IMG/VR virus record: IMGVR_UViG_3300033076_000509
Location: 1 to 60,223 of that record
Strand: one strand, 5' to 3'
DNA length: 60,223 nucleotides
Origin: a virus
Lineage: Duplodnaviria > Caudoviricetes
Shown: piece by piece, positions 1,392-4,383 of the stretch
Layout of the letters: each line of letters starts with the position of its first letter
Position numbering within the stretch: the first letter of the stretch is position 1
Position numbers and translations under genes: made by a program
Notes under the pieces: generated by a model
What the model saw: only the letters and a program-made list of their open reading frames with translations
The model's database searches: none
Told to the model about the DNA's origin: nothing

Positions 1392-2170
1392 TGCAGCAGC
1401 CTCGGGAAGAGTTCCAACACCTCGCCGTCAAGCTCGTGGCCATGGCCGTTCCGTGGTGGCGTCAGGCCAGCGGCACGATACAGCCGTTCCTCGTCGGTTT
1501 CCACCGGCGCGACCTCATCCGCCCACCTCTCGCCATTCAGCCACGTGCTGGCATGGGGAATATATTCCGGTCGGCTCAGGTCGAAAGGATAGGCAATGAC
1601 AGCAGCAAGCAAAACCTTGTGGCTGACCTTCTTCGCAGCCGCAGCATAGGCGCGGCGGGCTTGGCCCTTACCGACCTTGCGGGGATACTGGTCCCACCAT
1701 GGATCGAATGCGTCATCCTGCGCGGCTCGCGCGCGTTGTTTATCTGTCTTTCTCTTTCTTTCTAGTCTATCTTGTCTATTGGGTGACACCATGTCACCAG
1801 ATGGTGCTGGAATGTCACCAGATTTGATTTCCGAAAATGCAGAAATGTCACCAGATGGTGCTGGAATGTCACCAGATGATATTTCGGCATCTAGTGACAA
1901 CATGTCACCAGTTGGCGCGCAATCCATGTTCAGTGTGTAGGCTGATGTTGCCCGGTTGCGGCGGCTGACGGAGATCAATCCGGCCCGCTCTAGGTCCACC
2001 AGAACCCGCAAAAGATGCCGCTTGGCAATGCCTGAAAGCTCGGCCAACGTGGCAGTCGAAGGCCACGCAATGCCATCGTCACCCGCCTTCCATGCCAATG
2101 CTACTAGGACACTTTTCCTTGATCCTGTTGCCCGGACGCTGAAAGCCCAATTCAGCGCGGCGATGCTCAT
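1388..2170 (-). CDS. phage replication initiator (N-terminal HTH, lambda O-like organisation)
   Basis: MSIAALNWAF...AWPSTATLAELSGI HTH; C-terminal FDPWWDQYPRKVGK...YIPHASTWLNGERWADE; internal iterons; ATG at 2170 overlaps the upstream stop. Confidence 0.85.
   Translation of the reverse strand: MSIAALNWAFSVRATGSRKSVLVALAWKAGDDGIAWPSTATLAELSGIAKRHLLRVLVDLERAGLISVSRRNRATSAYTLNMDCAPTGDMLSLDAEISSGDIPAPSGDISAFSEIKSGDIPAPSGDMVSPNRQDRLERKRKTDKQRARAAQDDAFDPWWDQYPRKVGKGQARRAYAAAAKKVSHKVLLAAVIAYPFDLSRPEYIPHASTWLNGERWADEVAPVETDEERLYRAAGLTPPRNGHGHELDGEVLELFPRLLQ
1738..1911. repeat. putative replication origin (iterons plus AT-rich tract) inside the initiator gene
   Basis: ATGTCACCAG at 1791, 1812, 1845, 1866 and 1902; GTGACA-N3-TGTCAC palindromes near 1783 and 1894; pyrimidine/AT-rich tract at 1738-1780. 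Confidence 0.8.
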
Positions 2171-2418: not shown

Positions 2419-2508
2419 GGAAGTGCCTTTCCGGTTGGCGCGGCTCGTGTGACTACGAGGCCCCGCAGGTTAATGGTCCGGGGTGGCGGCGAACCACTCC
2501 GGACCAAG

Positions 2509-2542: not shown

Positions 2543-3844
2543 TCATCTCCCCTCCATATTAGCGCCGGACAAAGCGTCTTCGGGCTTCATCAGTGATTTG
2601 GTCCGGCGCACCCGCTTGACGCGGGAAGGTTGGACGGGGACAGTGCGTATTTGGGTATCACAGGCGCGCTGGTCCCCGTCCCGGCTGGCAATCCCCAATT
2701 GGTTTTCAGACCCTATAGGGCCAGCCAAACTATCGGCGGGGGACACATGTTGATTGGAATCAACGCCATGTTTGGTCCCCCGCCACGCCTGCCACATCTC
2801 CCGTAACAGGCGTTTTTCAATATATCGCAAAGCGCGCTTATGGGCATGCATCTTGGTAATGCCCTCGCGCTCCATCTCAGTCGCCTTGCGCGCCCTGTAG
2901 AGGTCCGCATACGGCCCCCCAGCCCGCACAAGGCAATCGCCAATGACATGCATCTCAGAACGCCGGACGGGGCTGTAGCCGTGCCGCAATGCCTCTTCCG
3001 CATTGGTCCGCTTGCCCTGCGACTTGCCGTCGATCACCGCCAAGCCCATGCGCTTCCACAACTTGCCGGGGTTGGAGTAGTTGCCCAGATCGCCCGCCTC
3101 CCCGATGATTGCTGCCACGGACGGCAAGCCCAGCCCCTTGACCGCGCCGGCCCATGCCATGATCGGCAGCGGCTTCACCAGCTTGAGCAACTCCTTCTGG
3201 CATTCCTTGCGCTGTTGTTCGGTGTAGTCCCGGATGGCAAAGAACCGCGCCCGCGTGGTGATCACCATCTGTTCATCGGTTTTAACCACGTCCGGAAACT
3301 TACCGGTGGGCAGAGGAATTCCCTCCGCCCGGTAGCGACGCACAGCGAACCAGCGCGCCTCCGCTTTGATGCGCCGCTCCATGTCCCCCATTTGGCGCTG
3401 GATGGCGCGATGTTCACGATGCAGAGATTGGATGGCGGCGATTGTTTGGGGATGGACACGGGAAATCGGGATATCATCCACGGCAAGGTCCATCCCCACG
3501 CCGGCAAGGGGAGAAAGGGCCCCATCGTCTAATTGGCCAGCGAATTGGTCGGGAGCGGCACGCTTGCTATGGTCATCAACGGCCATATGGCCGCTCCCAC
3601 TGTTGGCAGGTTCCCCATGGGTATCGCCCGAGGTATGGCCAACAGAAACACTTGCGTCAGGCAGGCCAATTTTGGATTTCACGAACCTTCCGGCCTGACG
3701 CACCGCCTTCCGGCGGATAGGTGCGGGGATGGCATCTGCCATTGGGATATCGAATCCGTGCTGGCCATCCCCGCTGGCGGCAACCGTCCCAAGGTCCGAG
3801 GACACCAGAGGGCTGGCCGCCAATTCCTCGCGGTCGCGCATCAC
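2543..3844 (-). CDS. TasA-like RNA-guided protein (coiled coil plus Nop/IS110 C-terminal domain, no RuvC or HNH)
   Basis: Core at about 2785-3446: helical coiled coil, then AVKGLGLPSVAAIIGEAGDLGNYSNPGKLWKRMGL...YSPVRRS...YADLYRARK...HAHKRALRYIEKRLLREMW; no DEDD domain; flanked by TIGR-type units. Confidence 0.85.
   Translation of the reverse strand: MMRDREELAASPLVSSDLGTVAASGDGQHGFDIPMADAIPAPIRRKAVRQAGRFVKSKIGLPDASVSVGHTSGDTHGEPANSGSGHMAVDDHSKRAAPDQFAGQLDDGALSPLAGVGMDLAVDDIPISRVHPQTIAAIQSLHREHRAIQRQMGDMERRIKAEARWFAVRRYRAEGIPLPTGKFPDVVKTDEQMVITTRARFFAIRDYTEQQRKECQKELLKLVKPLPIMAWAGAVKGLGLPSVAAIIGEAGDLGNYSNPGKLWKRMGLAVIDGKSQGKRTNAEEALRHGYSPVRRSEMHVIGDCLVRAGGPYADLYRARKATEMEREGITKMHAHKRALRYIEKRLLREMWQAWRGTKHGVDSNQHVSPADSLAGPIGSENQLGIASRDGDQRACDTQIRTVPVQPSRVKRVRRTKSLMKPEDALSGANMEGR
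2562..2784 (-). ncRNA. TIGR-like stem-loop guide array, downstream block (4 units)
   Basis: Units at 2735-2784, 2683-2726, 2632-2681 and 2562-2609, e.g. GGACGGGGA-CCA-GCGCGCCTG-TGATACCCA-AATACGCAC-TG-TCCCCGTCC. Confidence 0.85.
3447..3822 (-). ncRNA. TIGR-like stem-loop guide array, upstream block (7 units)
   Basis: Units at 3775-3822, 3723-3774, 3653-3702, 3600-3645, 3551-3598, 3499-3542 and 3447-3498, e.g. GGGAGCGG-CCA-TATGGCCGT-TGATGACCA-TAGCAAGCG-TG-CCGCTCCC. Confidence 0.85.
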
Positions 3845-4383
3845 TGCGCCCCCCGCATAATCTGTGCAATCTTATCCTCTTTCACGCCCTCGCGCACCGT
3901 GCGCTTTTTGCTGCGCCGCAGCATATCCGCCACATGTCGATAGATCGCGCCGCGCGCCTGTTCAGATGCTGCCCGCGCCTCATGATACTGCACGGCAATC
4001 GTCAGGTCTTCCACTGTCGCGTCGCCCAGCCGCACATCACAGCCCGGCAGCGGATAGTCATACAAACTCACCCGCGCCGAAAGCCGGGCTTCGCTCATTT
4101 TGGCCGCATGCTCTGGAATAGACCACACGGACTGACGTTCGATCTTCCGGCGCAAATTGTTCCGTGCGTCCTCCAGCATCCAGTGCGCCGCCTTCTGCCG
4201 AAACCAGGCATTGAGGTGCGGCATCACGTCCAACTGTTCCAAAATCAAATCGGCGCTTTCCTCCAGCGTTTCCTGTTCCGCGCACCGCGCCACCAGTTCG
4301 CGCAAGGCCGCATCAAGCCGCGCCCGTTCGTCGTCGTTGACCCCGCGCCGTGGCGTCGGTATGTTCTGAGTTGCTTCGGACAT
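3841..4383 (-). CDS. hypothetical helical protein, candidate Tas partner
   Basis: 180 aa; its stop overlaps the Tas-like start (GTGATG); LYDYPLPGCDVRLGDAT motif. Confidence 0.75.
   Translation of the reverse strand: MSEATQNIPTPRRGVNDDERARLDAALRELVARCAEQETLEESADLILEQLDVMPHLNAWFRQKAAHWMLEDARNNLRRKIERQSVWSIPEHAAKMSEARLSARVSLYDYPLPGCDVRLGDATVEDLTIAVQYHEARAASEQARGAIYRHVADMLRRSKKRTVREGVKEDKIAQIMRGAQ

Follow-up and report, generated by a model that had tools for sequence, protein, structure and literature searches.

A phage TIGR-TasA locus with its guide array inside the effector gene, probably translated from upstream through the guide units

Text passages of Faure et al. (Science 2025, PMC12045711) describe the stem-loop TIGR array as a series of variable palindromic stems with two 8- to 12-nt spacers and box C/D-like flanks. 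In text passages of Xu et al. (bioRxiv 10.64898/2026.09.09.750476, September 2026), stem-loop arrays are reported inside tas coding sequences "without disrupting the reading frame." The disordered regions that hold these arrays lie beyond the Nop fold, and intragenic guide RNAs (tigRNAs) of Bifidobacterium longum TasA were detected by small-RNA sequencing. The same passages propose a link between tigRNA maturation and Tas translation and leave open the choice between co-transcription and internal promoters. Here we describe tasA, an open reading frame (ORF) at positions 2543 to 3844 of the tailed-phage record IMGVR_UViG_3300033076_000509 (the window, 60,223 nt, which is the complete 60-kb virus record). 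The tasA gene and its guide units lie on the minus strand. A first-pass annotation, made from the letters alone, had pointed to a guide array at the start of this ORF. The central idea of a guide array inside the effector frame is already in print (Xu et al., 10.64898/2026.09.09.750476).

Like B. longum TasA in the passages of Xu et al., the window system has a TasA effector and carries units within the coding sequence, in disordered parts of the protein other than the Nop fold, and the tas frame runs through these units without a stop. The arrangement differs, since the intragenic unit of the B. longum protein is described in a wedge loop, whereas here seven and four units make up long N- and C-terminal tails, respectively. 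The CUU motif at the stem bases in the systems of those passages was not seen by eye in the 11 window units. A TIGR-TasA system on a Peromyscus leucopus gut contig (PMC12045711) is likewise described as a solo Nop-domain TasA in a phage or mobile-element setting, with tandem hairpins that have variable palindromic stems and two 8- to 12-nt spacers with box C/D-like flanks. That system is described with three sub-arrays beside the gene and an intergenic region of ~450 nt, whereas all units detected here are in the ORF. Bridge-RNA recombinases of the IS110 family (IS621, PDB 8wt6) have a homologous RNA-binding domain and a guide RNA at the 5′ side of the protein gene; unlike them, the window system has no RuvC/DEDD domain, has many tandem guide units rather than one bridge RNA, and carries its guides inside the ORF. 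A full-text literature search, together with passages of Guan et al. (10.64898/2026.08.11.744272), yielded no paper on arrays within coding sequences other than that of Xu et al. Frame statistics, an analysis of start codons, and a rule on unit phase are all absent from the text passages of Xu et al., although such statistics may be given in the figures, extended data, or supplements. As far as these passages go, the additions made here, for one TasA clade, are a quantitative frame test, an asymmetry between the N and C sides, a start-codon argument, a phase rule, and the absence of a codon signature.

The reading that we favor, with a probability of about 0.68, is that this is a phage-borne TIGR-TasA system whose guide array lies inside the effector gene and is translated from upstream through the units. 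Translation would most likely begin at ATG 3841 by coupling to termination of the upstream gene. The ribosome would then read seven sense-strand stem-loop tigRNA units, a 224-aa coiled-coil/Nop core, and four more units before ending at TGA 2545-2543. The product would be TasA with disordered tails of ~130 aa on the N side and ~78 aa on the C side. On the N side, the frame would stay open because the core can be reached only by ribosomes that have crossed the array. The peptide sequence would be tolerated as a by-product, with no filter other than one against stops and the phase rich in Cys, Trp, and Pro.

The units were delimited with a hairpin scan that required perfect arms of at least 7 bp and then allowed G-U pairs, which gave eleven units. 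All seven N-side units of the first-pass annotation were recovered, between 3823 and 3447; by limiting the array to the N side, that annotation had overlooked four further units (2785 to 2562) on the C side of the same ORF. Nine perfect hairpins with a loop of exactly 30 nt lie between 2562 and 3774, compared with seven across the remaining ~59 kb. On the N side, the loop is exactly 30 nt in six units, which have arms of 7 to 11 bp. The first unit, N1 (3774 to 3823; aa 7 to 23), is a variant stem-loop with 8-bp arms and a 34-nt loop. It is followed by the stem-loop tigRNA unit N2 (3723 to 3774; 11-bp arms, phase 0, aa 23 to 40), N3 (3653 to 3702; 10-bp arms, phase 2 as the sole stop-free phase, aa 47 to 63), N4 (3600 to 3645; 8-bp arms, phase 0, aa 66 to 81), N5 (3550 to 3599; 10-bp arms, phase 0, aa 81 to 98), N6 (3499 to 3542; 7-bp arms with one G-U pair, phase 0, aa 100 to 115), and N7 (3447 to 3498; 11-bp arms, phase 0, aa 115 to 132). 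The four C-side units all have 30-nt loops: C1 (2734 to 2785; 11-bp arms, phase 2, aa 353 to 370), C2 (2680 to 2729; 10-bp arms, phase 0 as the sole stop-free phase, aa 371 to 388), C3 (2632 to 2681; 10-bp arms, phase 0, aa 387 to 404), and C4 (2562 to 2609; 9-bp arms, phase 2, aa 411 to 427), with the stop of the ORF 17 nt beyond it. The repeated peptides noticed earlier, GQHGFDIPMADA, GHTSGDTHGEPA, GHMAVDDHSKRA, and GQLDDGALSPLA, are all present in the tasA translation. They come from four units in the same phase, which five N-side units use.

The same unit recurs in related loci. Across 163 related sequences, loop length has a sharp peak at 30 nt (840 hairpins versus ~220 at neighboring lengths). 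The unit logo reads GGC/CA-N9-TG-(4 nt)-CCA-N9-T/GCC, that is, two 9-nt variable stretches, each between CCA and TG, held in a stem of variable sequence. A detector for CCA-N9-TG-N4-CCA-N9-TG with at least 7 of 8 closing pairs found 10 units on the minus strand of the window, 0 on the plus strand, and 0 elsewhere in the 60 kb; in the related loci it found 769 units on the tas strand versus 19 on the opposite strand. For the ten window units, 98.8% of cells pair (shuffles, 65%; slid controls, no more than 52.5%), and 6/8 pairs change on both sides, although this covariation is partly circular because the stems helped pick the units. Tandem Repeats Finder reported no repeats between 3300 and 4000 because stems and spacers vary. 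An Rfam search assigned the units to no family, and its lone match, at 2722 to 2789, was to a microRNA model and below threshold (26 bits versus 100 required). A search of the phage's own 60 kb for dual-spacer 18-bp targets, with a geometry taken from text of Faure et al. (PMC12045711), namely two adjoining 9-nt halves on opposite strands with gaps of 0 to 2, returned 7 matches. All had 3 mismatches, which is chance level, and several were the units themselves.

Several features of individual units were also observed. N1 represents a second unit type with an 8-nt linker between the spacers (GTGTCYTCGGACC context) and a possible UUCG-like mini-hairpin. In the related locus L002 (72% core identity), many units with 34-nt loops lie in a 183-nt higher-order repeat (376 to 974 of that locus), which at 61 codons is frame neutral, and the frame is open for ~413 codons ahead of the core. 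The stems of N2 and N7 are nearly identical in sequence (3764 to 3774 and 3447 to 3457), and in the minimum-free-energy fold of the entire N-side array N3 to N6 are enclosed by a helix formed from the 5′ arm of N2 and the 3′ arm of N7 (z = -4.8 versus shuffles). The 5′ arm of C1 (2775 to 2785) coincides with the codons of a nearly invariant W-R that closes the last core helix, as it also does in L002, L006, L008, and L009. At this arm, a conserved protein segment and an RNA stem truly use the same bases.

The probabilities that can be obtained from the window by itself are weak, and the strong evidence for a kept frame comes from relatives. With the core as query, 162 loci were fetched; with the window, all 163 sequences match the core hidden Markov model, and they form 136 clusters at 90% core identity, the window counted. 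The N-side test set comprised 85 loci with an array chained to the core, and the C-side set comprised 61 loci. On the N side, the frame of the core was open all the way from the first unit in 59/85 loci, and the other two frames were open in 28 and 13; stops numbered 68 in the core's frame and 172 and 285 in the others. With random phases, 25.4 ± 3.0 loci were expected to be open, and 0 of 200,000 simulations reached 59. The check proposed in the first-pass annotation, whether homologous arrays stay open beyond chance, thus came out in its favor on the N side, where the counts point to selection that keeps the frame.

The relatives are largely independent trials, because their spacer pairs are all unique (652/652, with none common between or within loci) and because embedding of the array changes repeatedly on the tree. 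On a FastTree phylogeny of 117 cores, with 19 partial cores left out, the states "all chained units in the ORF" (50 loci) and "not all" (24 loci) require at least 13 changes; the ten shuffles listed gave 16 to 22. Frame-preserving insertions or deletions were sought among pairs with at least 90% core identity. This search mostly failed, as most such pairs are the same contig recorded twice and only L015/L089, L097/L100, and L114/L119 were informative. In L015 (1986 to 2291) and L089 (1172 to 1477), stems and linkers are mostly kept unit by unit, every spacer is different, and both frames are open. The comparison suggests that spacers are exchanged within a fixed hairpin scaffold. Contigs of two related phages match the core and then diverge from the window at 3445 and 3439, the junction of core and array, which agrees with fast array turnover and with co-occurring relatives that carry different arrays. 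TIGR systems are not known to have acquisition genes.

Start codons provide a second line of evidence. At core codon 0, composition jumps across 50 loci (GC content at second codon positions [GC2], 0.56 to 0.32; at third positions [GC3], 0.64 to 0.76). This sharp switch indicates that the first helix is coding and that initiation lies upstream of it. In-frame starts were then located in 77 loci, as 8 of the 85 were dropped because the core was truncated or the sequence held no start. In 39/77 loci there is no in-frame ATG, GTG, or TTG between at least one whole unit and the core, which covers 80/319 units. In L008, an ATG behind GAGGAG is followed by ~170 codons without a start codon, a stretch that holds 7 to 8 units. 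The corresponding stretch past the last possible start is 171 codons with 8 units in L040, and it holds 8 units in L086. In L060, which has an ATG behind AAGGAG, the last possible start lies 138 codons before the core, with 5 units between. In L045, the only ATG stands behind GGAGGG, and there are 3 units. The ATGs of L008, L060, and L045 thus named have strong Shine-Dalgarno sequences and precede the array. Family-wide, these loci strongly imply that ribosomes start upstream of such arrays.

In the window, the ORF comprises 433 aa from GTG 3844 or 432 aa from ATG 3841. Within the GTGATG at 3839 to 3844, the stop TGA of the upstream ORF (3843 to 3841) shares its A with ATG 3841-3839, and a G-rich stretch with six Gs lies 8 to 13 nt 5′ of this ATG. 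The upstream ORF (180 aa, 3841 to 4383, minus strand) ends in QIMRGAQ, which is kept in L002 with synonymous changes, and the homologous overlap of start and stop is TAATG in L002 and TGATG in the window. The conserved overlap fits the coupled start that the first-pass annotation had claimed, and its reading of an open frame from GTGATG through all seven N-side units also stood: over 3844 to 3447, frame 0 has 0 stops and frames 1 and 2 have 3 and 5, one of these being the stop of the upstream gene. With both arrays taken together, frame 0 is without stops and the two other sense frames hold 16. ATG 3841 is probably the start used in this phage. The TGA boxes do always fall out of frame, as had been said, although the cases are few, with a central TGA in 3/7 N-side units (N3, N5, and N7).

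The tas transcript may also be the tigRNA precursor, and processing or TasA binding at the N-side units may shut off translation and make expression self-limiting. Should the tas transcript supply the tigRNAs, a processed or TasA-bound transcript would be untranslatable, and protein and guide output would be coupled. A somewhat unlikely alternative is that the ORF is translated through the array but that its guides are transcribed from separate internal promoters or arise when other transcripts read through, so that maturation and translation are uncoupled. Both routes are stated to be open in the passages of Xu et al. (10.64898/2026.09.09.750476). Against uncoupled guides, the units directly adjoin, with linkers of 0 to 20 nt, and no promoter-like site was found in 2543 to 3844 (minus strand) by a scan whose promoter search covered the sigma-70-type consensus only. 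Between 2000 and 6500, that scan for promoters and terminators stayed at the level of shuffles, with nothing within tasA; it gave 2 promoter-like sites versus 1.8 expected. A GC-rich hairpin at ~2473 to 2503 (minus strand; 7-bp arms, 17-nt loop, no T run), ~40 nt past the tasA stop, does not follow the unit motif and may be a transcript end or a processing site.

A number of observations weigh against translation through the array, and several of them favor a view in which the array is an untranslated leader in this phage, translation starts at GTG 3499, ATG 3493, or GTG 3481, and the open frame is a GC-rich chance event. At this locus, the probability that frame 0 is open is 0.026 on the N side and 0.057 on the C side in dinucleotide shuffles, and 0.099 and 0.066, respectively, when each unit and linker is given a random phase; the window alone is suggestive only as evidence for a kept frame. 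The array lacks a coding composition: in the relatives, spacers within ORFs have a GC3 of 0.50 to 0.53 and linkers have GC contents of 0.63, 0.61, and 0.59 at the first, second, and third codon positions, versus a core GC3 of 0.76, and in the window GC3 is 0.63 in the array versus 0.77 in the core. On the C side, openness is marginal (30/61 loci versus 23.6 ± 2.8 expected, p = 0.02; 67, 88, and 89 stops by frame). Selection on the frame is barely indicated there, and because this conservation is marginal family-wide, selection on the C tail is not claimed. In-frame stops within the array occur in 26/85 relatives; the first-pass annotation had held that such stops, if common, would speak against it, and they are indeed present, whereas the 59/85 open loci exceed chance. 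In 11/77 relatives the array is placed entirely 5′ of the ORF; among these 11, a start with a Shine-Dalgarno (SD) match of at least 4 nt stands just before the core in 9. Finally, the three in-frame starts lie in or just before the last N-side unit of the window, so that no window unit is obligatorily translated, and the 4-nt SD scan ranked an internal ATG, 3586 inside N5, at the top, with only G-rich sequence before ATG 3841.

The untranslated leader is unlikely. ATG 3493 and GTG 3481 lie in N7, which holds the only in-frame alternative starts near the core, apart from GTG 3499 just before it, and whose 3′ arm adjoins the first core helix. None of the three has an SD match of at least 4 nt at the scanned spacing, and all are in or beside an 11-bp GC-rich stem. 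The earlier claim that no clear ribosome-binding site and start lie between array and core therefore needs qualifying: in-frame starts are there, but none with an SD match, and a start inside the last N-side unit is unlikely at this locus. L002 lacks two of the three late starts yet keeps the upstream ATG that overlaps the stop. The frame of the window is also open on the C side, and the joint probability for the N and C sides is ~0.0015 by shuffles. Across the family, the surplus of open frames and the units in relatives that must be translated likewise run against a leader. Embedding of the array in the ORF is nonetheless optional in the family. L097 and L100 have long regular arrays on both sides of tasA, with up to 20 units and two or three alternating stem sequences, wholly outside the ORF. 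Their units carry TGACACCC in the excluded phase (see below), and an ATG stands directly before the first helix.

The phase in which units are read constrains what kind of coding this may be. The in-ORF units (n = 361) are divided among the phases as 206 (phase 0), 151 (phase 2), and 4 (phase 1), whereas a filter against stops only predicts 39%, 40%, and 20.5%, respectively. With one unit per locus (n = 94), the counts are 54, 37, and 3. In phase 1, the CCA and TG bases that are conserved would be translated as Pro and Cys/Trp, respectively, and the Cys content is 1.5% in the real frame versus 5 to 7.7% in the other frames. Unit phase is constrained well beyond stop avoidance. The first-pass annotation had gone further, holding that new spacers must preserve the frame; this was overstated, because the loop is always 30 nt, so that a spacer swap cannot shift the frame and the sole risk is a stop, which occurs in just 13 to 20% of unit sequences in the used phases. 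The codon-usage (GC3) signal expected under coding selection was not found in the in-ORF spacers and linkers of relatives. Since the array stretches have no codon-position signature, the peptides look like tolerated by-products. The simplest reading of these sequence patterns is that the tails are made, hypervariable, disordered, and filtered only for harmlessness. That the tails instead are functional protein, with a selected G-H/Q-x3-D-T-H/Q-x3-A peptide (for example, for metal or nucleic-acid binding) and secondary hairpins, would account for the strong phase bias and the depletion of Cys, Trp, and Pro in the real frame, but is very improbable, as no spacer pair is shared (0/652) and most tail residues differ between loci, all spacers differ between L015 and L089, GC3 and GC2 carry no signature, the predicted local distance difference test score (pLDDT) of the tails is below 56, and arrays of this type function outside ORFs, both in relatives and in published systems.

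The protein itself supports the assignment to TIGR-Tas. A profile of eight cores matches TIGR-TasR (PDB 9mty) at E = 1.3e-17 and TasH at E = 2e-7. In an AlphaFold2 model built from 110 sequences, pLDDT exceeds 95 at about aa 128 to 355, and the fold is all helical with two short strands. Against the PDB, Foldseek ranked TasR and TasH chains 1 to 10, with IS110-family recombinases after them at ranks 12 to 17. The core (2780 to 3451; aa 131 to 354) comprises a coiled coil and a Nop-type RNA-binding domain, and neither a Pfam scan nor the AlphaFold2 model showed a RuvC, DEDD, or HNH part in the tasA product. It is a nuclease-less solo-Nop TasA in the naming of Faure et al., which bears out the Tas-like core named in the first-pass annotation. 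The tails are predicted to be disordered, with pLDDT of 41 to 56 and no secondary structure at aa 1 to 127 and 356 to 432. The helical region is bounded exactly by the hairpins: its first helix opens at aa 131, as the N7 3′ arm ends, and its last closes at aa 354, as the C1 5′ arm begins. An IS110-family transposase was considered and rejected: PF01548 had no match at E up to 0.1, there is no DEDD domain, and the N-terminal 130 aa are array encoded and disordered. Pfam gave nothing on the tasA product except a sub-threshold Transposase_20 match, and the label of PHROG 4285 is "transposase."

The neighbors of tasA on the same strand are genes for RusA, a DNA methylase, and an HTH_36 replication-type protein. 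The last of these (ORF 1388 to 2248) contains, at ~1790 to 1910 (minus strand), several direct copies of the 11-nt word TCTGGTGACAT; when translated, they give the peptide SGD(I/M) repeatedly. The copies look like origin iterons within an initiator gene. Lambdoid phages carry origin iterons inside the initiator gene.

By analogy with published work on other TasA proteins, this TasA would act as an RNA-guided DNA binder or repressor. Whether ribosome passage through the guide array is a selected control device, and not a mere accident of layout, is a more tentative matter, and we regard the control device as possible but doubtful. As such a device, a translating ribosome would melt the hairpins, and the message would be blocked or severed when TasA bound or processed the hairpins within the 5′ part of its own coding sequence. 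A given transcript would then be a source of protein or of N-side guides but not of both, and TasA would balance its own level against the supply of guides. In that case, the almost complete avoidance of phase 1 (4/361) would amount to a rule on the permitted coding content of a guide array and would demonstrate that the tails are produced in vivo and that translation filters the uptake of spacers and units.

Guides nested in frame within the gene of their own effector are an unusual form of packing, with a possible coupling of the two halves of an RNA-guided system. In annotation, such genes are called long "transposase" ORFs with odd repeat tails. For the engineering of compact TasA tools, the tails are probably removable. 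The arrangement also bears on how spacers are gained and exchanged in arrays without Cas1/2-like genes, and the frame, start-codon, and phase results make the question of translation through guide arrays directly testable.

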